64,000 nucleotides of DNA, from positions 3,913 to 67,912 of the forward strand of contig JAGVWP010000001.1 in assembly GCA_018304985.1 (NCBI GenBank). The letters run 5' to 3'. Positions within the stretch are counted from its first letter, which is position 1. The number at the start of each line of letters is the position of its first letter. The position numbers and the translations under genes were made by a program. The stretch is from Candidatus Pacearchaeota archaeon. Its GTDB lineage: Archaea > Nanobdellota > Nanobdellia > Pacearchaeales > GW2011-AR1. Below, in pieces: positions 933 through 28,952 of the stretch. A model generated the notes under the pieces. The model was not told where the DNA came from. It worked only from the letters and a program-made list of their open reading frames with translations, and searched no databases.

Positions 933-980
933 TATGCTAAAAATAAACCTTTTAGAAAGGTTTCCAAACCTTAAAGAAAA

Positions 981-2243: not shown

Positions 2244-2291
2244 CATTTTGAGTATAAAAATGTTTAAATGCCTTTTATACTGCGATAATTC

Positions 2292-3089: not shown

Positions 3090-3101
3090 AGAAAAATAAA
3101 A

Positions 3102-4133: not shown

Positions 4134-4134
4134 T

Positions 4135-5145: not shown

Positions 5146-5157
5146 ATATAAAGAAAA

Positions 5158-5796: not shown

Positions 5797-5911
5797 CTTA
5801 TTATATTTAATAATTTTTTGAAAACTATACAATCCTAAATTTCTCTTTTATAAGAAATTTAACATTATTTATAATTGATTAAATTAATTAGTTTATTATA
5901 ATTAAGCATCT

Positions 5912-5986
5912 AAAAGGATATGTCATAAAAAGAACCTTAGTATTTTAAGAGGAAGTTATTATAGAAGAAACCTTGGTGTCTTCTAT
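5912..5986 (+). repeat. intergenic bipartite palindromic repeat element (aaaagg..cataaaaagaaccttag + ggaagttattatagaagaaaccttggtgtcttctat), copy A
   Basis: Near-identical copy, inverted, at 12571-12648. Related copies occur at 28996-29035, 47546-47626 and 50473-50520. Confidence 0.8.
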
Positions 5987-7602: not shown

Positions 7603-7684
7603 TAAAAATAGAATTAAAAAGGGTTTTTATTGTTTTGCGTTTGAGAACAATAAAGTTTATAAAAGATTTTTTAATGGATATATA

Positions 7685-9238
7685 ATGAAAGTTTTATATG
7701 CTCATAAACATCATCCTATAGAACCTTTAGGAGTAGCTTATATATCAAGTTCTATAGCAAGAAGTGGGCATGAATCTAAATTAATGCTTACTCCAAGAAA
7801 TATAGATAAAGCGGTTGAGGAAGTATCAAGAGTTATCGATCAGGAGCATCCAGATATTTTTGCTCAAAGCATAATATTTGGAAGCCACAAATATGCTATT
7901 GACTTAAGTAGAAAAGTTAAAGAAAGATATCCAAAAATTATTAGTTTTCTTGGAGGGCCTGCTCCAACATTTACGCCTGGATTAATTTCAAGGGGATTTG
8001 ATGCTATATGTCGTTATGAAGGAGAAAATCCATTTCTAACTTTCTGTAATAATGTTGAATCTGGAGCAGATGTTGGAAACATCCCAAATATATGGGTTAT
8101 GGAAAATCCAGATTTATATAATACAGAAGTAAGAAAAGTAAAAAAAGTCTTAGATAAAAATGATCTAAATTACAAAAAAGAAAGTGGATATGATCCTCAA
8201 AGAAAAATGTTTGTAAATGATACTGGAGTACTTCTTGAAGATGAAACCTTAGAAAATATTCCATTTCCAGATAGAGAATTATTATATGAACATGAAATGT
8301 ATAGAGATAGTGATATAAAACATTATATGTCTACACGAGGTTGTGCATTTAAATGCTCTTATTGCCACGTACATGTTCAAAATGCTGATAATAAAGGAAA
8401 GGGCAGTCCTGTAAGAAGGAGACAGAATGAATCTGTTGCAGAAGAAGTATTAGCAATTAAGAAAAAATTTGGATCTAAAAATGATTATTTTCAGGATGAT
8501 ATTCATGGAGCTTCTTATAAATTAGAGTTTGCTAAAGAGTATGCAGAAGTTATGGCAGGAGTTTCTCAAAATGGGCACTGCCATGTTAGATTTGATCTTA
8601 TTGCCAAGCATCCAGATATCGCTAAATATCTTGCAAAAGCAGGAATTACTGGAGTTCATGTTGCAATAGAATCTGGGGACGATTATATTAGGAATCATGT
8701 TCATAGAAGAGGAATGACTATAGAAGAAATTCTTAAAGGAGCAAAATATTTACATGATAATGGAATAAAGATGATGACCCAAAATATTTTAGGAGCTGCC
8801 GGAGAAACAAAAGAACAAATGTTGAAAACTTTAGAATTAAACATTGCAGTTAGACCCACCTTTGCTTCTGCATCAATCTTCCAACCGTATCCTGGAACTA
8901 GTGCTTTAGAATATGCAAGAGATCATGGAGTTTTACCTTCAAATAGTGAGGATGAATTAATAGACCTTTTTGGAATGGAAACATTTTATAATAAAACTAT
9001 ACTAATTCAAGATCCTCAACATAAAAGATGGTTAGAACTTTTTCAGAAGTTTTTTGCAATTGCTGTCGCAAATCCTCAAATCTATCAATCTGGAGTTTTA
9101 GATAAAATAATTGCCACTTATCCTAAAGGAGAAGAAGCAAATAAAGAGTTGGAGCATATGTATAGATTACATAGAGCTGAAGCTGATGAAAAACTTTATG
9201 GTGTAAAACTTAAAGAGATAGTTATGGAAGAGAATTAA
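7685..9238 (+). CDS. B12-binding domain radical SAM protein
   Basis: The N-terminal region resembles a cobalamin-binding Rossmann domain. A CAFKCSYC radical-SAM cysteine motif follows. The start is moved to the ATG at 7685 (MKVLYAHK) to remove the overlap with the convergent gene. Confidence 0.75.
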   Translation: MKVLYAHKHHPIEPLGVAYISSSIARSGHESKLMLTPRNIDKAVEEVSRVIDQEHPDIFAQSIIFGSHKYAIDLSRKVKERYPKIISFLGGPAPTFTPGLISRGFDAICRYEGENPFLTFCNNVESGADVGNIPNIWVMENPDLYNTEVRKVKKVLDKNDLNYKKESGYDPQRKMFVNDTGVLLEDETLENIPFPDRELLYEHEMYRDSDIKHYMSTRGCAFKCSYCHVHVQNADNKGKGSPVRRRQNESVAEEVLAIKKKFGSKNDYFQDDIHGASYKLEFAKEYAEVMAGVSQNGHCHVRFDLIAKHPDIAKYLAKAGITGVHVAIESGDDYIRNHVHRRGMTIEEILKGAKYLHDNGIKMMTQNILGAAGETKEQMLKTLELNIAVRPTFASASIFQPYPGTSALEYARDHGVLPSNSEDELIDLFGMETFYNKTILIQDPQHKRWLELFQKFFAIAVANPQIYQSGVLDKIIATYPKGEEANKELEHMYRLHRAEADEKLYGVKLKEIVMEEN

Positions 9239-9249
9239 ATAAAATAATC

Positions 9250-11154
9250 TTACCTTGCAGATTCTATTCTTTCCCAATTATCAACACTTTTAAATTTTTT
9301 AATTTTTGTATTATAAAAAACAAGTATCCACATATATAATCGAGCTAAAATTAATTCCAATGTCCAAAATCCCTCTTTAAATGTAGTTGGATAAGTTATT
9401 ATATGTATAAAACCTTCTAATGTTTCATTTTTAAACGATTTTACTCTAGGAGTAATTTTAGTATCTGCATATTTATCCAGTGTTTCATGAGCTTTAGCAG
9501 TTCTTACTTTTTGTTTTATCCAATCTTTCCAGTTGCTAACATTTTTTACATAAACTCTAGCATTTTCAGCATATCCTATTTTATACCCCTTTTCCCAGAA
9601 ATAATAAGGAATAATTGTGTCCTCCGCAGTATCTAATGGTATCTCTATTTTATTATCTCCCCTAAATGCAAAAAGATATCCAGAACACTCTATAAAAGAA
9701 TTACTTTCAAATGCTTTCATTCTTAACTTATTTGCTGCTTCAAATAAAAAATTGGCCCAATAACCATACTTATCTTTTCTTGATTCTATAGGAACCGGTC
9801 TTCCAGTAACACATCCTATTTCAGGATCTAAGAATAAATTTGTTATTTCTTCAATTACATTATCACTTATAAATACGTCCCCGTCTGTCAATATTAAAAT
9901 ATCCTCTTTTTTTGTATTCTTTATTAACAGATTCAAAGCATACATTTTTCCTTTTCCAGGATCTTTAAATAATTTTATCTCTTTATTATGCTTAGAATAT
10001 TTTTTTGCAATATTCAAAGTTTCCTCGTCAGGAGCAGAGACGAGAATACCATAATCATATTTTGTTTTTTGGTTTAAAGCAGATTCAATTGCTCTGCCGA
10101 TATTTAGTTCTCTAAAAGCAGTTATAATTAATAAAATTTTAAAATTGATCATTTCTTCAATTGATCTAATTATTTCATGTAATGAAATTTTTCCCATGCT
10201 TTTACAATTCCTGCTATAACAGCATAAACAATTTGACTTTGCAATTATTTTTTTACCAAGACCATACATATCTATCTCATGATTTGATGTTGGTCCTATA
10301 AGCACAATTGTTTTCCTTTTCAAGGCAAGAGCAATATGAAGTCCAAGTGTATCCGAGGTTATAAATAAATTGCAAATACTCACTAATGCTGGAAATTCTA
10401 CTAGATCATTTCCACAACCAGTACTAATTATAGGCGCTTTAGCTAATTTAATTACCTCCATATTTCTTGTGGTTTCCTCAGGTCCTCCAAAAAGAAGAAT
10501 TTTTGCATTAAATTTATTATGAATTTCTTCAATTAATTTAACAGTCATTTTTATTGGCAGATCCTTGGGCCATCTTTCCCCAGATCCAGTATTAATACCT
10601 ACAATTAAATCGCTTCTGGACAAATTATGTCTCCTTAAAAAATCATTTGCAATAATTCTTTGGTCAGTATTTAATCTTAAAAATGGTTCATATTTTTCAA
10701 AATCTTTTATATCTATAATTGCAGACATAAGCTGTCTATGGGTCTTAATATTCTCTTTTTTTAAAATATCTGCTTTCTTTTTTCCATATTTACTAATTAA
10801 AGAGGTATTAAACCATTCTTCTGTCTCTGATGTATAAATTATTTTATTGTCTTTATCCAAAAAAGCCCCTAATAACTTTTTTGTATTTAAAAAAGAAACA
10901 AATTTTGCACTATCTTCATCTTCTTCAAGATTAATAACAAGATCAAAATTAATACTTTTCAGTTTTTCTTTATCTTCCTCTGCAACTATTTGATAAACAT
11001 AAGGATTATTAACAAACAAAGAAATTGCTTTTTTACTAGTAACCCAAAAAACCTTGGGGTCTTTATTTTTATACTTATCTTTTAAAGCTTGGGCTAAAAA
11101 ACTTGTTCTTACCACATCTCCCAAAGCTCCTGTCTTTATAATTAATATATTCAT
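9250..11154 (-). CDS. fusion of a GT9 (ADP-heptose:acceptor heptosyltransferase-like) domain and a GT2 domain
   Basis: The N-terminus MNILIIKTGALGDVVRTSFLAQALK matches the RfaC/RfaF family signature. The middle has GGPEE...SGCGNDL...SDTLGLHIA motifs. The C-terminal ~290 aa are GT2-like with DGD. Confidence 0.65.
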   Translation of the reverse strand: MNILIIKTGALGDVVRTSFLAQALKDKYKNKDPKVFWVTSKKAISLFVNNPYVYQIVAEEDKEKLKSINFDLVINLEEDEDSAKFVSFLNTKKLLGAFLDKDNKIIYTSETEEWFNTSLISKYGKKKADILKKENIKTHRQLMSAIIDIKDFEKYEPFLRLNTDQRIIANDFLRRHNLSRSDLIVGINTGSGERWPKDLPIKMTVKLIEEIHNKFNAKILLFGGPEETTRNMEVIKLAKAPIISTGCGNDLVEFPALVSICNLFITSDTLGLHIALALKRKTIVLIGPTSNHEIDMYGLGKKIIAKSNCLCCYSRNCKSMGKISLHEIIRSIEEMINFKILLIITAFRELNIGRAIESALNQKTKYDYGILVSAPDEETLNIAKKYSKHNKEIKLFKDPGKGKMYALNLLIKNTKKEDILILTDGDVFISDNVIEEITNLFLDPEIGCVTGRPVPIESRKDKYGYWANFLFEAANKLRMKAFESNSFIECSGYLFAFRGDNKIEIPLDTAEDTIIPYYFWEKGYKIGYAENARVYVKNVSNWKDWIKQKVRTAKAHETLDKYADTKITPRVKSFKNETLEGFIHIITYPTTFKEGFWTLELILARLYMWILVFYNTKIKKFKSVDNWERIESAR

Positions 11155-11248
11155 AGTAAAAGATGCTTATAGGTATTTAAAAACATTTAGACTCCATAAA
11201 TATGTTATATATAACAATATTTAAATAATTATTTAAAATAAGCTATAA

Positions 11249-11746
11249 ATGATAGAATTAGAAAAAAAACTACTCTCAATAGAAGAAATTAGTGAAATAA
11301 TTAACCCATTAAAAAATATTGGTAAGATAATAGTAACTACTAGCGGAAGTTTTGATATATTGCATTCAGCCCATGTCCATTTTCTTCAAAAAGCTAAAAA
11401 AGAGGGGGATGTGCTTATAGTTTTGCTGAATACTGATAGTTCAATCAAAAGAAATAAAGGAGAAAAAAGACCAATAGTCCCTGAAGATGAAAGAGCTAAA
11501 ATGCTTGTCTCTTTAGAATGTGTTGATTATGTTGTGATTTTTAATGAAGATAAGCCATTAAAATTACTGGAGATGATAAAGCCAAATATACATGTAAAAG
11601 GTGGAAGCTTTATTCCTGAAAGAATTAAAGAAGAAAAAGAACTCTTGGACTCATGGGAAGGAAAATATAAAACCTTTGAATTAGAAGAAGGATATTCCAC
11701 AACAAATATTATTCAAACTATATTAGAAAAATATAACAACATATAA
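11249..11746 (+). CDS. D-glycero-beta-D-manno-heptose-1-phosphate adenylyltransferase-like (HldE domain II / RfaE-II cytidylyltransferase-like)
   Basis: SGSFDILHSAHVHFL...NTDSSIKRNKGEKRPIVPEDER...VDYVVIFNEDKP...VKGG closely parallels the E. coli HldE C-terminal domain. Confidence 0.7.
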   Translation: MIELEKKLLSIEEISEIINPLKNIGKIIVTTSGSFDILHSAHVHFLQKAKKEGDVLIVLLNTDSSIKRNKGEKRPIVPEDERAKMLVSLECVDYVVIFNEDKPLKLLEMIKPNIHVKGGSFIPERIKEEKELLDSWEGKYKTFELEEGYSTTNIIQTILEKYNNI

Positions 11747-11749
11747 AAA

Positions 11750-12421
11750 ATGCCCGAAAAAATGAAAATAAAATTTCATGCAACGGAAAATCAATATAAA
11801 CCCGTAGTGAGATATTTGAGAAATTACAGAAAAAAAGCAAAACTTATTGAAATTGGTGCCGGAGGTAGAACACTGCAAAAATTTCTTCCAGAAAATATCT
11901 CTTATTATAGCCTGGATTTTGACCCAAACTATGGCAAAGCTTTTTTCAAAGCAAAGCATGATTATCATTTTGACTTAGATAAAGGCAAACTTCCAGTTAA
12001 AGACAAATCTTATGATATTATTGTCTGCCTTGAGACTTTAGAGCATGTTATGTATCCCCAGAAAGTTGTGGATGAAATGAAAAGAGTTGCTAAAGACGAT
12101 GCAATCTTCTTTATATCAATTCCCAATGAGTATAATATCCTTCTTAGGTTGTATTATCTTTTTGGAAAAAAGCATAAAATGGATGAGACTTTTATGGTTG
12201 TTGAGAAGCATCTACATATACACAAGCCAAGAGTCAAGGATATTATAGGATTCTATAACAAGAACTTTACTATAAAAAAACTAGATTATATCTGGCAGTC
12301 AAGAAGCAGCATGTATTCAAAAATGGTTTATTTTATAGACAGAATAATTGATATTTTTGCAAAGATATATCCCAGTTTATTTGCAAAGATAATTTTAGTG
12401 AGAGCTGAGAAGAAAATTTAG
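11750..12421 (+). CDS. class I SAM-dependent methyltransferase
   Basis: IEIGAGG and LETLEHV motifs. Confidence 0.6.
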   Translation: MPEKMKIKFHATENQYKPVVRYLRNYRKKAKLIEIGAGGRTLQKFLPENISYYSLDFDPNYGKAFFKAKHDYHFDLDKGKLPVKDKSYDIIVCLETLEHVMYPQKVVDEMKRVAKDDAIFFISIPNEYNILLRLYYLFGKKHKMDETFMVVEKHLHIHKPRVKDIIGFYNKNFTIKKLDYIWQSRSSMYSKMVYFIDRIIDIFAKIYPSLFAKIILVRAEKKI

Positions 12422-12570
12422 TTTTATTGTTATGTATTTGAAAACATGCCATAACTTTACATTATTTATATCTAGTAAGTGTCTGATATTCATTAATATA
12501 ATATGATTAATTATCTAAACATACTTAATAATAACCTAAAAATCAGGGAAAGATATTGCAGTATTTCAAA

Positions 12571-12648
12571 ATAGAAGACACCAATGGTTTCTTCTATAAT
12601 AACTTCCTTTTAGATGCCAAGGTTTCTTTTATGAAGCTTCCTTTTAAA
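12571..12648 (-). repeat. same repeat family, copy B (inverted orientation)
   Basis: Reverse complement reads ggaagttattatagaagaaaccattggtgtcttctat, preceded by aaaaggaagcttcataaaagaaaccttgg. Confidence 0.8.
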
Positions 12649-12669
12649 TTTTATTATTTTTCAAAAATC

Positions 12670-13818
12670 TTAATCTTCATTAAACAAAACAGTTATTTCT
12701 TGTATTATCTTTTTCCAGCTGAATTTTTCAACTGACTTTCTGGCATTTTTTCTTATATTTAATATTTTTCTTTGATTTTTCTTATTTAGAATATAATTTA
12801 TTTTTTCTGCAAGCGCTTTTTCATCTCCTATATTAAATAAAAATCCGTTTTCAGTATCTTGGATTAAGTCTTTAGAAGCAAAATTATTGCTTGCAATAAC
12901 AATTTTTTGCCTTGACATAGCTTCGACAAGAGCCTGAGGCATGCCTTCTGCCTTACTCGGTAAAACAAATATCTTACATGAGTCTATTTTTTTTATTTTC
13001 TCTTTTAAATCATAGATTGGAGATGAAAAAACAACACTTTCTTTTAAGTTTAAATTATTAATCAATAAATCCAATTTCTTTTTATATTCCTCTTCAGCAG
13101 GACCGACAATCTCAATAATTATTTTTTTATCATTAGCATAGACAAGAGATTTTATCAGTGTTTCAAGACTTTTAATGGGCGAGATTCTTCCCAAAAAAAG
13201 AATTTTATTAAATTCATTTTTTTTATTAGATTTGTATTTAAAAAAATCCTCTGGAATTCCATTAGGAATATATGCCATTTGCTCTTTTTTTAATCCCAAC
13301 TCAAGTAAATATGGCTCTTCCCATTTAGTTATTGTTATAACTTTATTAAAATTATTCAGTGTTAATCTACCAATTATATTGTCATAAAACAACACTATTG
13401 TCTCGGATAATAAGCCTCTTGTTCTTGCAAATGGAGCATGAGTAACTAAAAATACCTTGCAATTAATATTTGCTTCTTTTAACTTTTTTGCTAATTTTAA
13501 TGCTTTTGTAGTATGTAAGTGCCTGTAGCTATGGGCAATAATTATATCAGGATGAAAATCAAGTGCTTTCTGCTGCGCATTTTTATCAAACCAATACATA
13601 AAGCTCTCACCGCCAAATTTTCTGAATGGAAATCTTTCTATTTTTACATTTCCAATTTTATCTTCTGCTGAAGCAAGTTCATTTGTTCCTTTAACTGAAT
13701 TTGATGAGAAAACAACAACTTCGTGTCCTTTTTTAGAAAGCAATTCTGACTCCTGTTTCACTCTTTGCCATACTCCACAAATTCCTGCTGAGAAATGGCA
13801 TAATTCTAAGATTTTCAT
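12670..13818 (-). CDS. family 4 glycosyltransferase (GT-B)
   Basis: The C-terminal EGMPQALVEAMSRQKIVIA motif is typical of GT4. Confidence 0.7.
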   Translation of the reverse strand: MKILELCHFSAGICGVWQRVKQESELLSKKGHEVVVFSSNSVKGTNELASAEDKIGNVKIERFPFRKFGGESFMYWFDKNAQQKALDFHPDIIIAHSYRHLHTTKALKLAKKLKEANINCKVFLVTHAPFARTRGLLSETIVLFYDNIIGRLTLNNFNKVITITKWEEPYLLELGLKKEQMAYIPNGIPEDFFKYKSNKKNEFNKILFLGRISPIKSLETLIKSLVYANDKKIIIEIVGPAEEEYKKKLDLLINNLNLKESVVFSSPIYDLKEKIKKIDSCKIFVLPSKAEGMPQALVEAMSRQKIVIASNNFASKDLIQDTENGFLFNIGDEKALAEKINYILNKKNQRKILNIRKNARKSVEKFSWKKIIQEITVLFNED

Positions 13819-13838
13819 ATTAATCTATGTAATTTTAC

Positions 13839-14630
13839 TTAATTTATAAGTTCATTCATCTTGACAAAATCGTGTTTTTTCTTTAAATAACCTACCATAA
13901 AGTCAAAATTCTCTATAACTCGATTGTGTGGGAAATTTCTATCAATTTTGCTTCTTGGAAGAGATATAAAATCCCATGAATGAGCATAGAAAACAGCGTC
14001 TTTATAGATTAATTCAAGCAGTTTAAAATAAATTTTTTGAGCAGATTTAGGAAATACCCTTGGGAGTATTGAAACAAATGGCAAGCCTAAAGAACTTGTA
14101 GGAATCTCAATTAAATTATGTGATTTATGTTTTCTTGGATTTGAGCAAAAGTTCAATAAATTGCTTTTAATTCTTTTTGGGAAAAAAGCCACTTGCAATA
14201 AATTTAACGGGGTTTTTGATGAGTCATATTTAAAACCATGATGAGAAAGTATTTTTGAAGTATTTATATCAACAGAATGCTGAGCAGCCCTAAATCCCAT
14301 TGGATGCTGGTTGAGATATTTTTTAAAAACATGTATTGATTTTTTAATAGATTCTTCTTTCTGCTCTAAATTAAGATCATCAAACCTAACATGTCTGTAT
14401 CCGTGAGAAGCAATTTCATGGCCATTTTTCTTTAAATTCTGAAATATTTTTGGATAATTTTCAATGCAATCAGAGGTTGTAAAAAAGGTTGCTTTTACTT
14501 TATGTTTATCTAAAATAGATAAAATTCTTGGTATTCCTTCTGTTATTCCAATGAATTCTCCCGAATGCAGATCTGGCTCAACATCAAAACTTAGTGAGAT
14601 TCTCATTTTACTATCTCTTTTATTAAACAA
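13839..14630 (-). CDS. polysaccharide deacetylase (NodB homology domain)
   Basis: SFDVEPD, ATFF and HEIASHGYRH motifs. Confidence 0.65.
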   Translation of the reverse strand: MFNKRDSKMRISLSFDVEPDLHSGEFIGITEGIPRILSILDKHKVKATFFTTSDCIENYPKIFQNLKKNGHEIASHGYRHVRFDDLNLEQKEESIKKSIHVFKKYLNQHPMGFRAAQHSVDINTSKILSHHGFKYDSSKTPLNLLQVAFFPKRIKSNLLNFCSNPRKHKSHNLIEIPTSSLGLPFVSILPRVFPKSAQKIYFKLLELIYKDAVFYAHSWDFISLPRSKIDRNFPHNRVIENFDFMVGYLKKKHDFVKMNELIN

Positions 14631-14658
14631 TCAAGTTTATGTATTAAAATATAAAAGA

Positions 14659-16869
14659 TCAATCGACAAAAACCTTTTCTCCATTTTTTATCTTTTCAAT
14701 AATCATTTTGGATATTTCTGGCCTCATAAACCAGTTAGGTAGTTGTTTACCTGATTGAAGTATTTCTCGTGCTTGAGTTCCAGAAATATGAAGTTTATGT
14801 TCTTCAGGATGATCTAAAAATTCTGATTCATGAATATAATCATTTTCAAGATCTGAGTAAAACACTTTATCGAATTTTATTGGTTCTATTCCTAATTCCT
14901 CTTTTGTGAAATTATCAAATATTTTATGTGACATATTGGGATGATAAAAGTTTTCTACACCTGTATGATCTCTACCGATAATAAAATGTGAGCATCCAAA
15001 GTTTTTTCTAGCAAGAGCAGTAAAAACTGCTTCACGAGGACCACAGTATCTAGAGTAAGTTGCAAATGTTCCAAGAATTACTAAGGATTTAGGATAAAAT
15101 TCTTCTATCATCTTCTCGTAAGCATTTATTATTACTTCTGATTCAAAATCTCCTGATTTTTTCTTGCCTATAACTGGATGTACTAGTAATCCATCACACA
15201 ATCCTTTTTTCATACCTTCAAGTTGAATGAATTCATGAGATTTATGAATTACATTTCTTGTATGAAATCCGAGTACTTTAGACCAACCTCTCTCAGCAAA
15301 AATCTTTCTTGTTTGATGAGGAGTTAGTTCATATATTTTATTTTTTGAATTTCTTCTTTTTAGTAATGTAACTTTTCCTCCAAGAAAATTATTTCCTTTA
15401 TCCAAAAACATCCTCACCCCGGGATGAGTTCTATCAGTAGTGCCATATACTTTTTCAGCTATTTTTTCTTTATCTACTGAATATATCTCATCCAAATGCA
15501 TTATTCCATAAACTTCATTATTATAAGATAAAGCAACTTCTTCCCCTTGACTAAGGTTTTTTCTAACATCCTCATCAACCATTAAAACAATAGGGATTGG
15601 CCAGACTAACCCATTAGGTAACTTCATATTATCTGCTACAGAATTTAATTCTTCTTTATTCATAAATCCCTCGAGAGGGCTAAATGCTCCTATCGCAATT
15701 TGTTCTACATCCATTAATGTTTCCTCATCTACCTCTAATTTTTTCTCTGGAATTGGTCCAGGATAATTTGAATCTAAACGATTAATTAATTTACCACCGT
15801 GTGGTTTTGGAAGTAAGTCAGGAGTTTCTAAAGAAAGAGCGTAGTTTAACTCTTCAAGTTTGTCAATAAGATTTTCTTTTTTGCTTTTATCTAAAAATCT
15901 TATTTGATTTAGCAATAATAAAAGAGTGTTAACTGTTTCTACAGGGTATTTTCCTACTGCAGTTTCTTTAGTTAGGGCTATACCTGTTGCTCCATCTAAA
16001 ATCGTGTTAATTATATCATTAACTTCCCCCTTACTTGGTTTTAAAGCAAAGGCCATTTGTTCTAAAGTATTTGTTGCTACAAAAACTTCTTTTCCTAAAT
16101 CTCTTACTTTTTTGATAATTAATTTTTGAATAAATGGAATTTTTTCTAGAGGAACTTGACTGCTTAAATCTCCTCTATCTATTAGTATTCCATCAGAAAC
16201 TTGGGCTATTTTTTCGAAGTTCTCCAGACCTTTTTTTGATTCTATTTTAGAATACAATGTAACTTCAGGATAATTTTCTCTGAATTTTATAACACTCTCT
16301 GGGTTTTCCATGAATGATAAAGTAAAATGCTTGATATTATACTTTTTAGCAAGAGCTACTGCAGCATAATCTTTTTTACTAAAAGGGGGTAGATTAAATG
16401 TAGGACTATCTATTTGTACTGCTTTTTTCCCCCCGATTAATCCTCCAATAACTACTTTACATAAAATATACCCATTATCTCTTTCAGAAGTATCGAAAAT
16501 ACGTAGTAACACTGAATTAAAATCAATAGAAATTAGATCCCCTTCTTGTAATTTTTTAAATACTCCTTCAGGTTTTAAAAATAAATTTTGAGCATCACAT
16601 TCTATTTTATTTCCAAAGATTTTAACCATCCCTGATTCCTGAAATGTTATTTCCTTTATATTTCCAGATCTTATTTGTGACCCTTCTGTATCTAGAATAA
16701 TTGGCACTCCATAACCTAAAAGGTCTTTTATTCTCTGTTCTATATCTTTCTCTTCTGTATGAGATAGATTAATCCTGAAAAAATTAACTCCTCTGTCTTT
16801 AAGCTTCACTAATACCTCTTCTTTATTTGATGAGGGGCCAATAGTACAAATTATTTTATGATTTACCAT
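14659..16869 (-). CDS. sat: bifunctional fusion: pyruvate-kinase-like barrel domain (N-terminal) + sulfate adenylyltransferase / ATP sulfurylase (C-terminal)
   Basis: N-terminus: KIICTIGPSS...NFFRINLSHT...ILDTEGSQIRSG and DRGDLSSQVP...ATNTLEQM...DGATGIALTKETAVGKYP are PK catalytic motifs. C-terminus: HGGKLINR...AFSPLEGFM, GFHTRNVIHKSHE and ISGTQAREILQSG are ATP-sulfurylase motifs. Confidence 0.75.
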   Translation of the reverse strand: MVNHKIICTIGPSSNKEEVLVKLKDRGVNFFRINLSHTEEKDIEQRIKDLLGYGVPIILDTEGSQIRSGNIKEITFQESGMVKIFGNKIECDAQNLFLKPEGVFKKLQEGDLISIDFNSVLLRIFDTSERDNGYILCKVVIGGLIGGKKAVQIDSPTFNLPPFSKKDYAAVALAKKYNIKHFTLSFMENPESVIKFRENYPEVTLYSKIESKKGLENFEKIAQVSDGILIDRGDLSSQVPLEKIPFIQKLIIKKVRDLGKEVFVATNTLEQMAFALKPSKGEVNDIINTILDGATGIALTKETAVGKYPVETVNTLLLLLNQIRFLDKSKKENLIDKLEELNYALSLETPDLLPKPHGGKLINRLDSNYPGPIPEKKLEVDEETLMDVEQIAIGAFSPLEGFMNKEELNSVADNMKLPNGLVWPIPIVLMVDEDVRKNLSQGEEVALSYNNEVYGIMHLDEIYSVDKEKIAEKVYGTTDRTHPGVRMFLDKGNNFLGGKVTLLKRRNSKNKIYELTPHQTRKIFAERGWSKVLGFHTRNVIHKSHEFIQLEGMKKGLCDGLLVHPVIGKKKSGDFESEVIINAYEKMIEEFYPKSLVILGTFATYSRYCGPREAVFTALARKNFGCSHFIIGRDHTGVENFYHPNMSHKIFDNFTKEELGIEPIKFDKVFYSDLENDYIHESEFLDHPEEHKLHISGTQAREILQSGKQLPNWFMRPEISKMIIEKIKNGEKVFVD

Positions 16870-16927
16870 CTTTTCATTAAAAATCTCTGATGTAAAAGTA
16901 TTTAAACGTTTTTGTTATACCTCAATT

Positions 16928-17842
16928 ATGGGCTCTAATAACTCAAGTGTTGATTTTGTGGGAATTGGTGTTGGAAGATCTGGAACAATTTGGATTTTAA
17001 ATGCTTTAGCAGAACATAAAGGAATTTGGTTTCCTTATACTAAAGAATTAAACTATTTTTCAAACCCCCATGGTGGAGAAGTAAGCGAGTATGACAAAAG
17101 AGGGATAAATGGGTACTTAGATTTGTTTAAAGAGTGTCCTAAAAATAAGATTAAGGGCGAATTTAGTTCACATTATATGCCTGATCCAAAGGTGCCAAAA
17201 ATATTGAAGAAGCATTTTCCAAATGTGAAAATATGGGCCATATTAAGAGATCCTGTTGAAAGAGCATTTTCAGATTATGTTAGAGGAAAGGAGTTCCATC
17301 TGAAAGAGAAAGATAGTTTTGAAGAAGCATTTTTCGCTGAAAAAAACATATTGTATAAAAAGGGTGACGGATATCAAGAACGAGGGTATTATTATAAACA
17401 TTTAAAGAGATATTTTGAACTATTTTCTAGAGAAAATATTAAGATAATTCTATATGATGATTTTAAAAAGGATAATGAAAAAGTAATAAAAGAACTCTAT
17501 GAATTTCTAGGAGTAGATCCTCTTTTCAAACCATCAATTATTGGGAAAAGGATAAATGAGCGTACTGGAACAAAGTTTAGAGGAATTAAGAAAGTAATAA
17601 CTTTCTTAGCAAAAATTTCGCATAAATTGGAAGAGGGTATGATAGGTAAGTTGATTTATACAATTAAAAGAAAAACAGGAATAAACAGATTTTTTAATCA
17701 GCTAAATGAACTAAACACAAAGAAAGAGGTTGAAAAGGAGAAATTAGATCCAGAATTAAGAGATAAATTAAAAGTAGTTTATTTAGATGATATAACAAAA
17801 CTTGAGAAGCTTATAGGAAGGGATTTAAGTGAATGGAAATAA
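16928..17842 (+). CDS. sulfotransferase
   Basis: 5'-PSB-like GRSGTIW motif and 3'-PB-like ILRDPVERAFSDY motif. Confidence 0.75.
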   Translation: MGSNNSSVDFVGIGVGRSGTIWILNALAEHKGIWFPYTKELNYFSNPHGGEVSEYDKRGINGYLDLFKECPKNKIKGEFSSHYMPDPKVPKILKKHFPNVKIWAILRDPVERAFSDYVRGKEFHLKEKDSFEEAFFAEKNILYKKGDGYQERGYYYKHLKRYFELFSRENIKIILYDDFKKDNEKVIKELYEFLGVDPLFKPSIIGKRINERTGTKFRGIKKVITFLAKISHKLEEGMIGKLIYTIKRKTGINRFFNQLNELNTKKEVEKEKLDPELRDKLKVVYLDDITKLEKLIGRDLSEWK

Positions 17843-17900
17843 AGCATAATTTTTTATGAATAAATATTTAAATAGGTTTGATAATAATTTTTAGGTTAAA

Positions 17901-19061
17901 ATGATAAAAAATATTGGTATTGTTGCTACTCCAAATATTTCTACAGGAGGGGGTTTTCCAAGAGTTGTCAGAGATTTAATAGCTTCATTAAATGAATTAA
18001 ATTATAAAGTTAGTTTAATGACTCCTTTTACATTAGATTATGAAAAAATAAAGGAGTTATACGGTCCAATAAAACTTGAAAAAGTGCATTATCCAAGCGG
18101 TTTTAAGAAGAAATTCTGCAAAGAAGACAGTATAACAAGAAGGTTAATGAAATCAGAATTCTTAAAAATGTTTAATGAAAATGATTTGGTAATCGATATG
18201 GATGGGAAAATTTTGGATAAGTATCTTAGTACTGAAGAAAAAAAGCGGTATATTATATGGAGAGTTTCTTGCGCTTATTCAGATACTAAAAAATTTCCGG
18301 AGATGAGGAGAGGGTTGAGCAGAAAAGGGAAAGAAATTCTTAAAGATTTATTAAACACAAAATCTACAAGACCTGGAAAAGATATTAAAATATATTCATT
18401 AGATGAATGGACTGCTAAAGAACTTAAATATTATTGGAATTTAAATTCTGCTGGTTTTTTAAATCCAGAAATACAGGTAGAACATATAAAATACAAAGGA
18501 CAAAAAAAGAAAAATCAAATAGCTGTTTTAGGAAGAATAGCCAGAAATAAAAAAATACATGATTCAATAGAAATATTTTCTAAAGGAACTAGCAAATTTA
18601 AAGATTATAAATTAGTCATTCTTGGAGGAGCAACTCCTGATTCTGATTTATATATTAAAGAATTAAGTAACCAAATTGAAAGATTAAATATTAAAGAAAG
18701 AGTTGAGATGATTCCAAATCCTTCATTTGAGAAGATTAAGGAAATTTTGCTTAATTCAAAAATACTTATTGATTCACAACAAGGAGTTAGTTTGACAATG
18801 ACTGCAATTGAAGCTATGGCTGCTGGTTGTATTGTTTTAGCAACAAAAAATGGGGGAACATATTTAGAAGTTTTAGGCAAAGGTAAATATGGTTTTGGTT
18901 TTGATAATATTAAAGAAGGTGGAAATAAGTTAGAACAGATAATACTTGAATTAAATAGCAAAAAACTTAACTACCATAAATTTATTAAAGGAGCTGATAA
19001 ATTCTCTCATAAAAATTTTATTAAAAGGCTAAAAGAGATTATAAATAATATAAACGTTTAA
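17901..19061 (+). CDS. family 4 glycosyltransferase (GT-B)
   Basis: C-terminal GVSLTMTAIEAMAAGCIVLAT motif. Confidence 0.6.
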   Translation: MIKNIGIVATPNISTGGGFPRVVRDLIASLNELNYKVSLMTPFTLDYEKIKELYGPIKLEKVHYPSGFKKKFCKEDSITRRLMKSEFLKMFNENDLVIDMDGKILDKYLSTEEKKRYIIWRVSCAYSDTKKFPEMRRGLSRKGKEILKDLLNTKSTRPGKDIKIYSLDEWTAKELKYYWNLNSAGFLNPEIQVEHIKYKGQKKKNQIAVLGRIARNKKIHDSIEIFSKGTSKFKDYKLVILGGATPDSDLYIKELSNQIERLNIKERVEMIPNPSFEKIKEILLNSKILIDSQQGVSLTMTAIEAMAAGCIVLATKNGGTYLEVLGKGKYGFGFDNIKEGGNKLEQIILELNSKKLNYHKFIKGADKFSHKNFIKRLKEIINNINV

Positions 19062-19090
19062 ATATACAAAATAGGATAAATTAAAGTAAA

Positions 19091-19852
19091 ATGGCAGAAA
19101 AAGCTTTTGATATGGATTATGCAAAGTATTATGATATTTTTAATCAGGGAAAAAATTACGAGCAAGAAGCAGAATTTTTAGACCGGGTATTTAAGAAATA
19201 TTCAAAAAATCAAATTAAAACAATTCTTAATCTTGGATGCGGGACAGGAATGCATGATATAGAATTAAGCAAAGAAGGATATTCAGTTATGGGATTGGAT
19301 CTTTCTGCAGATATGATAGAAATTGCAAAATCAAGAAATATTCCTAATACTGAATTTGTTGTTGGAAATATGTCTAATTTTTCTCTTAATAATAAATTTG
19401 GCGCATGCATAAGCATGTTTGCGACATTTGGATACCAGCTTGAGAATAAAGATATAAAATCTTCATTTGAATGTATTAAAAATCATCTGCTTCCTGGAGG
19501 ATTAGTAATTATTGAAGTATGGAATGGACTTGGAGTTTTAAGAGAATTGCCAAGCAGCAGAAAAAAAGAAATAATCCATGGAGATATTTTAATAAAAAGA
19601 CAGAGTTTCCCAGTTTTTGATGCATTTAATCATAAAGTTGATATTAATTTTAAAGTTGATATATTCAAAAATAATGAATCTGTTGAAAGTTATGAAGAAA
19701 TGCATAAAATGAGATTTTTCTTCCCGCAAGAGTTCATAAAATATGTAGAAGATGCGGGATTTGAGGTTCTTGAAATATGTGATACTTTCAAGCTTGGAAG
19801 CAAAGTTAATGAGAACAACTGGAATATGGTTTTGATCGCTAGGTTAAAATGA
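19091..19852 (+). CDS. class I SAM-dependent methyltransferase
   Basis: ILNLGCGTGMH motif I and DLSADMIE. Confidence 0.65.
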   Translation: MAEKAFDMDYAKYYDIFNQGKNYEQEAEFLDRVFKKYSKNQIKTILNLGCGTGMHDIELSKEGYSVMGLDLSADMIEIAKSRNIPNTEFVVGNMSNFSLNNKFGACISMFATFGYQLENKDIKSSFECIKNHLLPGGLVIIEVWNGLGVLRELPSSRKKEIIHGDILIKRQSFPVFDAFNHKVDINFKVDIFKNNESVESYEEMHKMRFFFPQEFIKYVEDAGFEVLEICDTFKLGSKVNENNWNMVLIARLK

Positions 19853-19906
19853 TAACTAGTATAATATTATAATAAAGCTTAAAAGAGATTTATTCTTAGT
19901 GTTTTT

Positions 19907-21034
19907 ATGAAAAAAGCTCTAATAACAGGAATTACTGGACAGGATGGAAGCTATCTTGCAGAATTCCTACTTGAAAAGGGATATGAAGTTCATGGGATAA
20001 TAAGGAGAAGTAGCACTATAAACAGAGAAAGAATAGATCACTTAACAAAGCCAGAAATCCCTGCAGGACATACTGGAAAAGAAAAGGGAAGCTTTATTCT
20101 TCATTATGGAGATTTAACTGATTCAAGCTCTGTTGAAAAAATAATAAAAGAAGTTATGCCTGATGAAGTTTATAACCTTGGAGCACAGAGTCATGTAAGA
20201 GTTAGTTTTGACATACCTGAAAATACAACAAATGTTGTTGCTTTGGGAACATTAAGAATTTTAGAAGCTATAAAAAATGTATGTCCAAAGGCCAGATTTT
20301 ACCAGGCTTCTTCATCTGAAATGTTTGGGCAAGTAGCTGAGGTACCTCAAAAAGAAACAACTCCTTTTCATCCAAGAAGCCCTTATGGATGCGCTAAAGT
20401 GTATGCATATCATATAACAAGAAATTTCAGAGAGTCTTATGGAATTTTTGCATGTAATGGAATCTTGTTTAATCATGAGTCTGAAAGAAGAGGAGAGAAT
20501 TTTGTAACAAGAAAAATAACTCAATCATTATCGAGAATTAAAATGGGGCTTCAAACAGAAGTTTATCTTGGTAATTTAGATGCTGAAAGAGATTGGGGGC
20601 ATGCTAAGGATTATGTTGAAGCAATGTGGCTGATTTTGCAGCAAAATGAACCTGAAGATTATGTTATTGGTACTGGAGAAAAATATAGTGTAAGACAATT
20701 TCTGGAAGAGTCTGCAAAAACTCTTGGCATGAATATAAAATCTAATGGGAAAAGAGGAGTTGAAGAAGAATATTTAAATGAAAATGGGCAAGCAATTGTT
20801 AAAGTTCATCCAAGGTATTTCAGACCAGCTGAAGTTGATCTACTTTTATCAGACCCAACTAAAGCAAGAACTAAATTAGGGTGGATTCCAAAAATAACAT
20901 TTAAAGAACTAGTAAGGCTAATGTGTGATCATGATTTGAAACTTGCTGAAAAAGAATATTATCTTAAAAATAAAGTCAAGGTTGTTGATGATATTATAAA
21001 TATATTAAAAGATCAGAATAATAAATTTACTTAA
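19907..21034 (+). CDS. gmd: GDP-mannose 4,6-dehydratase
   Basis: [36 protein letters not shown] and downstream GMD-specific blocks ([24 protein letters not shown]). Confidence 0.9.
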
Positions 21035-21042
21035 ATAAAAAT

Positions 21043-22101
21043 ATGGAATATAAATATCCGGTTTCAAAGCCTTCTTTGAAAGGCAAAGAATTAGAGTATG
21101 TAACAAAAGCAATAAATGATGGATGGATTTCTTCTCAAGGACCTTATGTTCAAGAATTTGAAAAAGCCTTTGCAGAATTTAATGGAGTTAAACATGGAGT
21201 TGCTTGTTCTTCTGGAACAGCTGCGCTTACAATTGCTTTACGGGCATTAAATATAGGTCCTGGTGATGAAGTAATTGTGCCCGAATTTACAATGATTGCA
21301 AGTGCATGGGCAGTTACTTATACTGGAGCAAAACCTGTATTTGTTGATTGCAAAGATGATTTAACAATTGACGCAGATTTAATAGAAGAAAAAATAACTT
21401 CTAGAACACGAGCTATAATGCCAGTCCATATTTACGGAAGGCAGTGCGATATGGAAAAAATTATGGATATAGCTTATAATTATAACTTAAAAGTTATTGA
21501 AGATTCTGCAGAAGCCCATGGTGTGAAACCTACTGGAGATATGGCTTGTTTTTCGCTTTTTGCAAATAAAATAATATCTGCTGGCGAGGGGGGAGTGTGT
21601 GTTACAAATGACGACCATTTAGCGAAGCAGATGGTTCATTTAAGAGCAATGGCGTTTACTCCAGAACATAATTTTATCCATAAAAAAATAGCATATAATT
21701 TCAGGATGACTAATCTCCAGGCAGGAGTTGCTCTTGCGCAACTTGAAAGAATTGAGGAAATGCTTGCAAAAAGAAAAAAAATTGAAGATATTTATGATGA
21801 AAAACTAAAAAATATTAAACAAATAAAAGTAATGCCAAAAAGAAATGTTTTATGGATGTATGATCTTCTTGCAGAAAATAAACACGCCTTGCAAAAACAT
21901 CTCGAGGGATGTGGTATAGAAACAAGGCAGTTTTTCAAGCCAATGAGCCAGCAACCTATGTACTATGATCCTAATTGGAAAACTCTTAATGCGGCTAAAT
22001 TTGGGCACAGTGGCATTTATCTTCCAACATATGCTGACTTAACAGAAGAAGACCAGGAATATATTGTGAGCAAAATAAAAGAGTTCTATGATAAAATTTG
22101 A
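21043..22101 (+). CDS. DegT/DnrJ/EryC1/StrS-family PLP-dependent sugar aminotransferase (GDP-perosamine synthase-like)
   Basis: GDEVIVPEFTMIASAWAV, SLFANKIIS (the lysine region) and YNFRMTNLQAGVALAQLERI motifs. Confidence 0.8.
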   Translation: MEYKYPVSKPSLKGKELEYVTKAINDGWISSQGPYVQEFEKAFAEFNGVKHGVACSSGTAALTIALRALNIGPGDEVIVPEFTMIASAWAVTYTGAKPVFVDCKDDLTIDADLIEEKITSRTRAIMPVHIYGRQCDMEKIMDIAYNYNLKVIEDSAEAHGVKPTGDMACFSLFANKIISAGEGGVCVTNDDHLAKQMVHLRAMAFTPEHNFIHKKIAYNFRMTNLQAGVALAQLERIEEMLAKRKKIEDIYDEKLKNIKQIKVMPKRNVLWMYDLLAENKHALQKHLEGCGIETRQFFKPMSQQPMYYDPNWKTLNAAKFGHSGIYLPTYADLTEEDQEYIVSKIKEFYDKI

Positions 22102-22124
22102 TAAAATTTAGAGAATAGAGTAAA

Positions 22125-22919
22125 ATGAAAGATAAATTAAAAAAGCAAAGGTATTCTATATGCCTAACAACTTATTTTGATAAAAATTTCAGTGAAATGG
22201 GTGAAATAAGCTTGAAATCCATAAGAGAATATGCTGATAAGTTTAATATTGATGTAAAATTGCTGAACAATATAAATTCTAACAGACCTCCTGCTTGGAA
22301 TAAGATATTAATTGTAAAAAAACTTCTAGAAAATTATGATTTTGTTTTTTGGATTGATGCAGATGCATTATTTGTTAGATTTAATGAAGATATAAGAAAT
22401 GAAATAGAAAATGGAAAAGATTTCTATCTTGTAAAACATTATATAAAAGAAAGATGGGTTCCAAACAGCGGAAGTTTTTTAATCAGAAATAGTGATTGGG
22501 GCAAGAAATTCTTAGATGATGTATGGAATAAAAAAGAGTATATTTATCATAATTACTGGGAGAATGCTGCGATAATTGATCTGCTTGGATATAAAGAGGT
22601 AATGTACTTTAATAAATATAAAATGCTTGCTAACAAAATATTCTATAAATTAAAAATAAAAAAACAAGCTGTAAAAGCCTTTAACCTGTCTAAGAAAATA
22701 TTATTTTTTAATAAATCAAGAAAAGATGATAATGCAATTGTAAAAAATGTTAAATATCCTGAAAACCCTGAAATTATTAAAAAAGTCAAATGGATTGACT
22801 TAAAATGGAATAATCTTCCTGGCGTGGCAGAGACAAAAAATCCTATTATAAATCACTATCCTGCCAAACCTTATGAAGAAAGACTTAAAAAAATGCGTAT
22901 AGATTCAATTAAAATATAA
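22125..22919 (+). CDS. putative GT-A nucleotide-diphospho-sugar transferase (GT34/GMA12-like)
   Basis: PPAWNKILIVKKLLENYDFVFWIDADALF resembles the GMA12/MNN10 galactosyl/xylosyl-transferase block. Confidence 0.4.
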   Translation: MKDKLKKQRYSICLTTYFDKNFSEMGEISLKSIREYADKFNIDVKLLNNINSNRPPAWNKILIVKKLLENYDFVFWIDADALFVRFNEDIRNEIENGKDFYLVKHYIKERWVPNSGSFLIRNSDWGKKFLDDVWNKKEYIYHNYWENAAIIDLLGYKEVMYFNKYKMLANKIFYKLKIKKQAVKAFNLSKKILFFNKSRKDDNAIVKNVKYPENPEIIKKVKWIDLKWNNLPGVAETKNPIINHYPAKPYEERLKKMRIDSIKI

Positions 22920-22921
22920 AA

Positions 22922-23470
22922 ATGGAAAAATTAAATTTAGGATCTGGAATGGATTATCGGCAAGGATTTGTCAATGTAGATATTGACAAAAATGCGAAAC
23001 CAGATTTTGCCATAGATATTGAAAAGGGATTAAAAAAATTCAAAGACAATACTTTTGATTATGTATATTCTAGGCATGTTTTAGAGCATCTTGATCCAAG
23101 AAAATTAAAATTTGTAATGGATGAAATCTCCAGAGTATCTAAAAATGGAGCAATAGTTGATGTTTATGTTCCTCATTTTAGCTGTGGAAAAACCTATCAA
23201 TCGTATGATCATTTAAACAGCATGAGTTTTTTCACTTTTTCTGTTAAGGATTTTAAAACCTTCAAAATTTTAAAAAGACATTTGAGTTTTATGAGAGATG
23301 AATTGCCTTATACTGGCAATCCCAAACTAAATAATTTAGCTAAAATAATAAATCCTATTTTTTCATTTATACCTAATAAAATCCCGTTTATTTATGAAAG
23401 ATTCTTTTGCTGGATTTACCCTATGGAAGAAATTCATTTTAGATTTAAAATAATAAAAGATCAAATTTAA
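22922..23470 (+). CDS. class I SAM-dependent methyltransferase
   Basis: LGSG...YSRHVLEHLDP; 2 nt from the preceding gene. Confidence 0.6.
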   Translation: MEKLNLGSGMDYRQGFVNVDIDKNAKPDFAIDIEKGLKKFKDNTFDYVYSRHVLEHLDPRKLKFVMDEISRVSKNGAIVDVYVPHFSCGKTYQSYDHLNSMSFFTFSVKDFKTFKILKRHLSFMRDELPYTGNPKLNNLAKIINPIFSFIPNKIPFIYERFFCWIYPMEEIHFRFKIIKDQI

Positions 23471-23657
23471 AACTATTTAACCTATAAAGATTAATATCTC
23501 AAACTTAATATCATGTTAAATTTATCCTAGATGAAAAATTTAGTATTACATTACTTTCAAAACTTATTTTGAAATTATACACTATCTCTGCTTAATTTTA
23601 TTATAATAAGTTATTGATATTTATCAATTAAAAAGTAAAAACTTTAGGTCTTATTAG

Positions 23658-25220: not shown

Positions 25221-25311
25221 TCATCTGATAATTCATCGGGGTTTTTAAAATATTCCCGTTGTAACATAGGAATAATTATAAAGTAAAATTATATCATTAG
25301 ATTGCGATAAA

Positions 25312-27917: not shown

Positions 27918-27994
27918 TAATATATAATTTTATATACCTTAAAAATTTTCTGTAATATTAAAAAAGATGAAATGAAATATAAATTGGTTGTTAG

Positions 27995-28303
27995 ATGCAT
28001 AGAAACCCGCTGGAGGTTTTTATAATGACTGACTGGATAAATAATGCTATAGATCATAATGGAATCCCCTTAATTGTAAAAAGCCTGCATGTAGGAGATT
28101 TTATTGAGGTTATTTATGCTAATTCGGATGAAAGACTTATTGGAGGTTATGTAACAACTCTGACTTCAAATTCTCCCAAATCTGACAAAGGAACAAATAA
28201 AGTTTATTTTCTGGGAATAAGCGCAGAACACCCGAATAATAATGAGGATGAAAAAATGCTTTGGGTTACCAAAATAAAATTATTCAGAGTGGTACATAAA
28301 TAA
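27995..28303 (+). CDS. hypothetical protein
   Basis: ORF only. Confidence 0.3.
   Translation: MHRNPLEVFIMTDWINNAIDHNGIPLIVKSLHVGDFIEVIYANSDERLIGGYVTTLTSNSPKSDKGTNKVYFLGISAEHPNNNEDEKMLWVTKIKLFRVVHK

Positions 28304-28839: not shown

Positions 28840-28952
<113 letters not shown>

Follow-up and report, generated by a model that had tools for sequence, protein, structure and literature searches.

Why would an archaeon join the catalytic barrel of a pyruvate kinase (PK) to an ATP sulfurylase (Sat), and what does such an enzyme do beside a sulfotransferase in a cluster of glycan-building genes? The question is raised by a gene on the minus strand (14659..16869) of a 64-kb stretch of DNA, here called the window, from a Candidatus Pacearchaeota archaeon, which encodes a 736-aa fusion of a PK module, a PUA_2 domain and an ATP-sulfurylase domain (PK-Sat). 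The protein is identical (100%) to NCBI MBS3091798.1, whose record is titled [quoted passage not shown]. With moderate confidence, we propose that PK-Sat is the core of a supply of 3'-phosphoadenosine 5'-phosphosulfate (PAPS) for sulfating an N-linked or surface glycan, and that its PK module would act as an ATP regenerator driven by phosphoenolpyruvate (PEP) and as a scavenger of ADP.

An earlier note on this DNA had described a PK catalytic barrel that lacks the C-terminal domain and is joined to a full Sat, and this architecture was borne out by Pfam, NCBIfam, an AlphaFold2 (AF2) model and Foldseek. The PK module (residues 3-313; 15931..16863, minus strand) consists of a TIM-barrel A domain and a lid (B) domain, the latter (residues ~66-154; 16408..16674, minus strand) being all-beta in the model and holding the invariant K149 (K206 in rabbit). 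Pfam PF00224 matches residues 3-313 over profile positions 3-328 of 328 with 210.9 bits (cut-off 30), and the module is followed by the PUA-like N-terminal domain of ATP sulfurylase (PF14306, 163 bits, residues 355-505; 15355..15807, minus strand) and the ATP-sulfurylase catalytic domain (PF01747, 250 bits, residues 513-725; 14695..15333, minus strand). A helical linker of ~40 residues precedes the PUA-like domain and occupies the place of the PK C-domain. No Pfam match was found in the 736-aa fusion either to PK_C (PF02887), the allosteric, tetramer-forming C-terminal alpha/beta domain of PK, or to the adenosine 5'-phosphosulfate (APS) kinase domain PF01583. In NCBIfam, the C-terminal 380 residues pass the trusted cut-offs for sulfate adenylyltransferase (438 bits against 387 for NF003166; 353 against 323 for TIGR00339), the PK equivalog TIGR01064 reaches 244 bits, short of its cut-off of 306, and the bifunctional Sat/APS kinase PRK05537 reaches 276 bits, under its cut-off of 669. 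The PK C-domain is judged absent because the NCBIfam PK match stops at about position 327-330 of ~476. On these profile matches, the fusion is a member of the Sat family that carries a PK A+B module, and this module fails the definition of a full-length PK because it has no C-domain.

The AF2 model, with 78 homologues as input, has a mean pLDDT of 93.3 and a pTM of 0.90, high values for a protein of three modules. In it, a TIM barrel with a beta lid is followed, past its final helix, by a short helical linker and then directly by the PUA-like domain. With Foldseek, the N-terminal half matched the A+B domains of PykF and PKM, and the C-terminal half matched the stand-alone ATP sulfurylases of Methanothermococcus thermolithotrophicus (8a8d) and Thermus thermophilus (1v47). 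Of the solved structures, these two are nearest to residues ~350-736 (E 2.5e-96 in sequence, TM 0.91 in fold), and they share the PUA-like and catalytic layout and the motifs; however, they function in assimilatory sulfate reduction and lack any N-terminal extension, whereas the fusion lies in a glycan-sulfation context and has 330 residues of PK attached. Canonical PKs (E. coli PykF 1pky, S. aureus 3t05, rabbit and human PKM) align end to end with the fusion over their A+B domains (E 1e-46 to 1e-50), and their first-shell catalytic and ligand-binding residues are all conserved in it. The fusion differs from them in lacking the C-terminal allosteric and tetramerisation domain, in carrying a DTEGxQxR / IDRGDLS / LTKE signature and in its setting, which is sulfation and not glycolysis.

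Conservation was counted over 119 full-length homologues of 49-100% overall identity, with rabbit PKM1 as the numbering reference for PK residues. The invariant PK residues (fusion = rabbit) are R32 = R72, N34 = N74, S36 = S76, H37 = H77, D60 = D112, T61 = T113, R67 = R119, K149 = K206, K208 = K269, E210 = E271, G233-D234 = G294-D295, T266 = T327 and E302 = E363. From established structural work on PK, we take their roles to be the binding of PEP, Mg2+, K+ and nucleotide and acid/base catalysis. All are invariant in 118-119 of the 119 homologues despite overall identity down to 49%. The PEP- and ADP-binding residues, on which the earlier note had proposed a check, are conserved and not degenerate; it is the second-shell signature that is distinctive. 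Relative to three bona fide PKs, the family reads DTEGxQxR for DTKGPEIR, IDRGDLS for VARGDLG, ATN(T/L)L for ATQML, and LTKE (LAAE in distant members) for LSGE. In the Sat part, the catalytic motifs H536-T-R-N, H542xxH545, G610-P-R-E-A and G632-R-D-H-T-G, aligned to 8a8d and 1v47, are likewise invariant in 118-119 of the 119. Since the residues of both parts are invariant or nearly so at these identities, selection appears to act on catalysis, and the conservation argues for an active phosphotransferase and not a scaffold.

The model implies that the PK module would be packed against Sat in a fixed arrangement, as a single rigid unit. Such rigid packing (pTM 0.90) would also suit a non-catalytic module, whether a scaffold, an oligomerisation domain or a regulatory domain that senses PEP or ADP. 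The fungal ATP sulfurylases 1i2d and 1j70 are among the structural matches of the fusion, and fungal ATP sulfurylase carries a degenerate APS-kinase-like allosteric domain, that is, a regulatory domain derived from an enzyme. Pseudo-enzymes, however, usually lose the kind of residues that are retained here at 14 catalytic positions, and we regard a non-catalytic PK module as highly improbable.

The fusion is not an artefact. Misassembly or a frameshift, which the earlier note had named as a possible refutation, was rejected: the identical protein in the identical gene order recurs in four independent sources, its contigs having been assembled separately from ENA, Logan and JGI data, and 119 full-length homologues exist. 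Full-length proteins of the PK+PUA_2+Sat architecture numbered more than 100 in a word-indexed search, at 49-73% identity; most carry the name Pacearchaeota or Nanoarchaeota, and a few are named as bacteria (Omnitrophota). When 1.84 billion cluster representatives were scanned exhaustively with HMMER, matches spanning both halves came from dozens of 50%-identity clusters, down to ~33% identity, and a reference-genome scan with a single-protein query (5 loci) placed the full-length fusion in two Nanoarchaeota metagenome-assembled genomes (MAGs) and a Deltaproteobacteria MAG. Full-length members from bacterial MAGs include L020 (Deltaproteobacteria MAG LacPavin, with cysC adjacent), P0014 (Omnitrophota) and P0090 (on an 8.78-Mb contig). 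The presence of the family in both bacteria and DPANN archaea suggests horizontal transfer.

Family members are named “sulfate adenylyltransferase” or “pyruvate kinase” in the databases. The earlier note knew of no described PK-Sat architecture, and this stands as far as the literature that we searched, in which no description was found; as sequences, these proteins form a large family already deposited under generic names. A survey of archaeal fusions lists for Sat only one fission and one fusion to a histidine phosphatase. The PK-Sat architecture is a variant of the multi-domain sulfate-activating enzymes that is common in DPANN metagenomes under such names.

Some members found by the word-indexed and HMMER searches have additional domains: nucleotide pyrophosphatase/phosphodiesterase (NPP; PF01663)+PK+PUA_2+Sat in P0268 (1151 aa), NTP_transferase+PK+PUA_2+Sat in P0104 (1019 aa) and PK+PK_C+PUA_2+Sat in P0262 (859 aa). 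In P0262, the PK joined to Sat is complete and has PK_C, yet its signature is of the K+-independent type; this protein may represent an independent recruitment of PK, and its domain composition shows that true PKs apparently do get recruited to Sat. Stand-alone PK-barrel proteins of ~345 aa with the family signature were also found (P0325 and P0369). At three loci (L066 2139-3953, L087 2299-4032 and L097 7358-8962), a gene for an ordinary bifunctional Sat-APS kinase (535-605 aa) adjoins the PK-Sat gene, so that two ATP sulfurylases are encoded side by side.

What is the activated sulfate used for? The neighbour of the fusion gene, transcribed divergently (16928..17842, plus strand), encodes a 304-aa sulfotransferase (Sulfotransfer_1/3; PF00685/PF13469), and the 58-bp AT-rich intergenic region between the two genes (16870..16927) presumably contains both promoters. 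The assignment of this neighbour to the PAPS type, made in the earlier note, was confirmed. It matches Sulfotransfer_1 with 63 bits (cut-off 22), its closest solved relatives are the bacterial 3rnl and the PAPS-dependent heparan-sulfate 3-O-sulfotransferases, and its 5'-phosphosulfate-binding (5'-PSB) motif G-R-S-G-T (residues 15-19) and 3'-phosphate-binding (3'-PB) motif R-D-P-V-E-R-A-F-S (residues 107-115) align to 3rnl and 3-OST-1. Across the fusion loci that we collected (99, reduced to 83 non-redundant loci at 95% identity), 40 of the 83 have a homologue of this sulfotransferase at most 2 kb from the fusion.

The gene pair lies within an N-glycosylation (Agl-like) cluster (1..28000). We identify the cluster as such, and not as a generic polysaccharide locus, because AglB/STT3, GT4, flippases and glycosyltransferases (GTs) are co-located. 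Its assembly genes encode a GT4 (AglH/WecA-like), two Polysacc_synt flippases, four GT2, two GT1/GT4, a GT9-GT2 fusion and two PMT_2 proteins; the others encode a B12-radical SAM enzyme, a cytidylyltransferase, methyltransferases, a polysaccharide deacetylase, a GDP-mannose 4,6-dehydratase, a DegT aminotransferase and a GT34-like protein. The left window edge cuts the gene of the initiating GT4 (window 1-932; its 5' end lies just outside), and AglB/STT3 (911 aa) and the full-length GT4 (333 aa) are found directly left of the window (L104 6176-9952). A DDE_3 transposase marks the left border of the glycosylation cluster, and a 5S rRNA/tRNA cluster together with SecDF marks its right border. The sulfation target is probably an N-linked or surface glycan, in agreement with the earlier claim that the glycan built by this cluster is sulfated. 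In Halobacterium salinarum, another archaeon in which an N-glycosylation cluster includes PAPS-type sulfotransferases, sulfated N-glycans are made by an Agl pathway with two sulfotransferases (cited in PMC13308652); this organism belongs to another phylum and makes another glycan, and no PK-Sat fusion is reported for it.

The same association is seen across the family. Among the 122 genes immediately flanking the fusion, the Pfam census counted 25 Sulfotransfer_1, 21 Sulfotransfer_3, 10 CDP-alcohol phosphatidyltransferases and 8 Inositol_P genes; the last are CysQ-like phosphatases of 3'-phosphoadenosine 5'-phosphate (PAP), and deacetylases, GT2, methyltransferases and flippases make up other flanking genes. 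In a single-pass hidden Markov model (HMM) search, CysQ-like genes were found in 11 of the 83 loci, in 3 of which CysQ is fused to APS kinase. By these counts, the fusion is genomically linked to all enzymes of the PAPS cycle (Sat, APS kinase, sulfotransferase and PAP phosphatase). A window-wide search found no CysQ, sulfate transporter, enolase, pyrophosphatase or second PK. The CDP-alcohol phosphatidyltransferase is a frequent immediate neighbour (for example L042 9163-9903), and in some lineages sulfate may end up on a lipid-linked product or on the head group of a lipid.

Where, then, is the APS kinase? The earlier note had seen none in the fusion or nearby, and its absence held up over 84 kb of the ~157-kb contig: tblastn with six fused APS kinase domains found none in the window (best E 0.15), and an APS kinase HMM found none in the window and the 10 kb on each side. 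The only Walker A proteins in these 84 kb are an ABC ATPase, Orc1/Cdc6 and one partial open reading frame (ORF), of unknown family, at the far end of the extension to the right. A polysaccharide deacetylase gene (13839..14630, minus strand), 28 nt downstream of the fusion gene, stands where many relatives have cysC, and no cysC remnant was found at that position.

Relatives of the fusion are more informative on this point. About one fifth of the closest homologues are long forms of 835-950 aa, for example P0003, with a C-terminal PF01583 domain, in which the P-loop, DGD and ISPF motifs are intact. Long and short forms are intermixed at every identity level, which suggests that fusion and fission happened repeatedly. 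A search with the fused kinase domains also returned many stand-alone APS kinases of ~170 aa that are 55-76% identical to them, and those that we looked up directly follow a PK-Sat gene (737 aa), the two being 1 nt apart or overlapping by 4 nt. When the 83 loci were scored by local HMMs, the APS kinase was fused to the C-terminus in 14, directly downstream in 31 (gaps of -45 to +460 nt, with frequent stop/start overlap), within ~6 kb in 5 and not seen in 33; in 24 of these 33 the sequence continues for 800 bp or more downstream, and in 14 it extends for 5 kb or more to each side. Judged by this survey, the APS kinase gap in the window appears to be mostly a local peculiarity.

Another kinase may take the place of APS kinase in some loci. 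In P0116 (L047 9983-12829), a P-loop kinase of the AAA_33/KTI12-like type is fused in the C-terminal APS kinase position of PK-Sat, and two further loci in which APS kinase was not seen have a stand-alone AAA_33-type homologue directly downstream of the fusion (L046 6498-7112 and L095 5331-5909). By its position, the AAA_33-type kinase looks like a non-orthologous replacement of APS kinase.

An arrangement close to that of the window is found in the MAG GCA_039796495.1, where a locus with a short fusion, a divergent Sulfotransfer_1, a GT4, a deacetylase and a CysQ-like gene (L016) coexists with an APS kinase on another contig, ~500 genes off, in a second glycan cluster (L017). By analogy, this MAG offers a direct precedent for a cysC located elsewhere in the genome, and the cysC of the window genome is presumably encoded elsewhere as well. 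P0128, an entry from the same sample titled “Adenylyl-sulfate kinase [Ca. Pacearchaeota]”, was considered as this cysC and rejected as coming from another MAG, since its accession lies ~5,400 entries off, its GC content is 32.7% against 29.7%, and its own PK-Sat is only 70% identical. No further pairs of fusion and cysC from the same genome were found by NCBI accession; most entries are without accessions.

Some APS kinases at these loci have fusion partners of their own. Three are fused to a CysQ-like Inositol_P domain (PAP phosphatase), in both domain orders (L048 14994-16352, L064 12745-14145 and L094 7516-8847), so that one protein unites the maker of PAPS with the remover of its by-product PAP. 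In L044 (2391-3308), a PQ-loop/SemiSWEET-like membrane domain is fused to APS kinase.

Three ways out of the missing kinase had been offered in the earlier note, namely a PK-like module that supplies a kinase or ATP-regenerating function, a sulfotransferase that uses APS, or an APS kinase elsewhere. The last, combined with an ATP-regenerating PK, is favoured: APS kinase is fused, adjacent or nearby in 50 of the 83 loci, and cysC is on another contig in one window-like MAG. The other two fared poorly. In 14 loci, the same invariant PK site is found together with an APS kinase that is fused and intact, which speaks against a PK module that substitutes for APS kinase. In the sulfotransferases of loci without cysC, the 3'-phosphate-binding Arg and Ser are each conserved in 15 of 15, as in the other classes; these sulfotransferases look PAPS-dependent, and APS as their donor is disfavoured because of this conservation.

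These observations can be joined in a mechanism. The Sat part would convert ATP and sulfate to APS, with release of pyrophosphate; a separate APS kinase, presumably encoded elsewhere in the window genome, would convert APS to PAPS, consuming ATP and releasing ADP; and the divergently transcribed sulfotransferase would take up the PAPS. The N-terminal module would be a catalytically competent PK that turns ADP and PEP into ATP and pyruvate beside the ATP-consuming sites. It would be unregulated, as allosteric control is expected to have gone with the C-domain. Such a step would keep up the ATP supply of Sat and APS kinase, prevent both a dead-end complex of APS kinase, ADP and APS and product inhibition by ADP, and make the energetically uphill activation of sulfate effectively PEP-driven. 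We infer the PK activity and its kinetic coupling to PAPS synthesis.

A precedent for such coupling is known from human PAPS synthase, which makes almost no PAPS in vitro unless PK and PEP are added, because ADP leads to a dead-end enzyme-ADP-APS complex (PMC9885120). The engineered system of that study resembles PK-Sat in combining Sat, APS kinase and PK for ADP removal and ATP regeneration; it is, however, an artificial mix of separate enzymes, whereas the PK of the fusion is covalently built into a natural enzyme. Among natural enzymes, the bifunctional Sat-CysC and PAPS synthases (Aquifex aeolicus, PDB 2gks; human PAPSS1/2) are likewise multi-domain enzymes of sulfate activation for PAPS with a homologous Sat. 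The long-form relatives of PK-Sat share with Sat-CysC the order of Sat followed by APS kinase, with intact P-loop, DGD and ISPF motifs. In contrast, the window fusion has no APS kinase domain, and the N-terminal PK module of the family occurs in no described PAPS synthase.

Could the module instead be a general glycolytic pyruvate kinase, tethered to Sat by accident or for co-expression and without kinetic coupling? Its catalytic residues match those of a working PK, reduced DPANN genomes often have no separately annotated PK, K00873 appears in only a few Pacearchaeota-rich MAG sets in one survey table, and both the databases and the literature already list proteins of this kind under “pyruvate kinase”. 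However, the fusion has been retained over dozens of 50%-identity clusters in archaea and bacteria, it sits in glycan or sulfation clusters and not beside glycolytic genes, and the family has gained further pathway-specific partners (APS kinase, NTP_transferase and NPP). The loss of the allosteric C-domain would also be unexpected in a glycolytic PK that controls flux. We consider a glycolytic role unlikely.

Several points weigh against PK-Sat as an ATP-regenerating core. PK is joined to Sat and not directly to the APS kinase that produces ADP, and where cysC is unlinked, any coupling would depend on the bulk ADP pool or on a non-covalent complex. The 84 kb without APS kinase belong here too, as do two close relatives, P0005 and P0056, from whose ~0.86-Mb contigs, Ga0080064_1000007 and Ga0376277_0000032 respectively, no APS kinase appears among the best 120 APS-kinase matches; this hints that a family-typical cysC may be lacking in some genomes. 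Finally, near-invariant departures from canonical PK lie beside the active site (K114 to E62, E117 to Q65, A292 to D231, G297 to S236, Q328 to N267 and S361-G362 to T300-K301), and these leave room for an altered cation dependence or substrate specificity of the module.

Taken further, the same near-invariant substitutions could mean that the module has been remodelled for another nucleotide, cation or phosphoryl acceptor, with a reaction other than PEP + ADP to pyruvate + ATP. PKs carry a T-K-E-T signature when K+-dependent and L-Q-K-L/I/V when K+-independent, and the substitutions match neither. All first-shell residues for PEP, Mg2+, K+ and the nucleotide phosphates are nevertheless kept, and the gene context points to no alternative substrate; a remodelled reaction seems to us quite improbable.

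For genomes such as this one, without a linked cysC, the absence of APS kinase from the 84 kb around the fusion gene and from the 14 well-flanked loci (none within 5 kb), and the lack of a match from the P0005/P0056 contigs among the best 120, could also mean that cysC is dispensable. Either the PK-like module would phosphorylate APS to PAPS with PEP, or the sulfotransferase would take APS directly. In PK chemistry, the acceptor of the phosphate is an oxygen of the phosphate or carboxylate type and not a ribose 3'-OH, which counts against the first variant, and the fully conserved 3'-PB residues of the sulfotransferases count against the second. The PK active site is moreover identical in members with a fused, motif-intact APS kinase, an unlinked cysC is present in GCA_039796495.1, and the AAA_33 kinase fills the APS kinase position in some loci. 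We give this explanation a very slight probability, and an equally slight one to its stronger form, in which some reduced DPANN genomes, perhaps that of the window too, truly have no APS kinase and a remodelled PK-like site performs or replaces the second activation step using PEP. If true, a cysC-independent, PEP-powered PAPS synthase would be new chemistry for the pyruvate-kinase fold.

The remainder of the window is a segment of an archaeal chromosome with ~30% GC, whose housekeeping genes encode ribosomal proteins L21e, S13, S4, S11, L13 and S9, RNA polymerase subunits, Orc1/Cdc6 and the PolD small subunit. Within the glycan cluster, a B12-binding radical SAM enzyme (7685-9238) and a 634-aa GT9 (heptosyltransferase-like)-GT2 fusion (9250-11154) are encoded by genes that recur beside PK-Sat in L007 and L016. 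Next to the cluster, a stand-alone 5S rRNA (minus strand) lies beside three clustered tRNAs (28839-29368); the middle tRNA (29169-29247) has an Rfam match and no ARAGORN match, and it may be atypical or contain an intron. A tyrosine recombinase (Phage_integrase) followed by ~5 kb of small ORFs without family matches (54019-59645) lies upstream of Orc1/Cdc6 (60255-61577) and may be an integrated element. A free-standing ORF at 32952-33896 has weak LAGLIDADG_3/HTH matches, and the PolD large subunit to the right of the window (L106 12599-17455) contains an intein with a LAGLIDADG domain.

Our results bear on how the metabolism of these archaea is read. DPANN studies (PMC8091004, PMC11537232) score “PYK” as glycolytic energy conservation and “sat” as sulfur catabolism, and one metaproteome contained a “pyruvate kinase” of Pacearchaeota; the supplement of PMC11537232 gives no indication whether that protein is a PK-Sat fusion. 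Fusion proteins have probably been scored in DPANN reconstructions as glycolytic substrate-level phosphorylation and as sulfur catabolism or assimilation. This is an annotation trap, as the “PYK” and “sat” calls may stem from one enzyme of glycan sulfation.

If the proposed function of PK-Sat as an ATP-regenerating core is true, the fusion would do in nature what biochemists achieve by supplying PAPS synthase reactions with PK and PEP, and its hard-wired ATP regenerator would be the first natural example of a PK built into a biosynthetic consumer of ATP. The compact long forms, which unite PK, Sat and APS kinase, could serve as one-protein PAPS generators for enzymatic sulfation. For the organisms themselves, the fusion would show by what means archaea with little energy and reduced genomes drive an activation step that is thermodynamically uphill. 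It also leads us to predict that N-glycans or surface glycans are sulfated in Pacearchaeota and other DPANN archaea, which may be relevant to attachment to their hosts.

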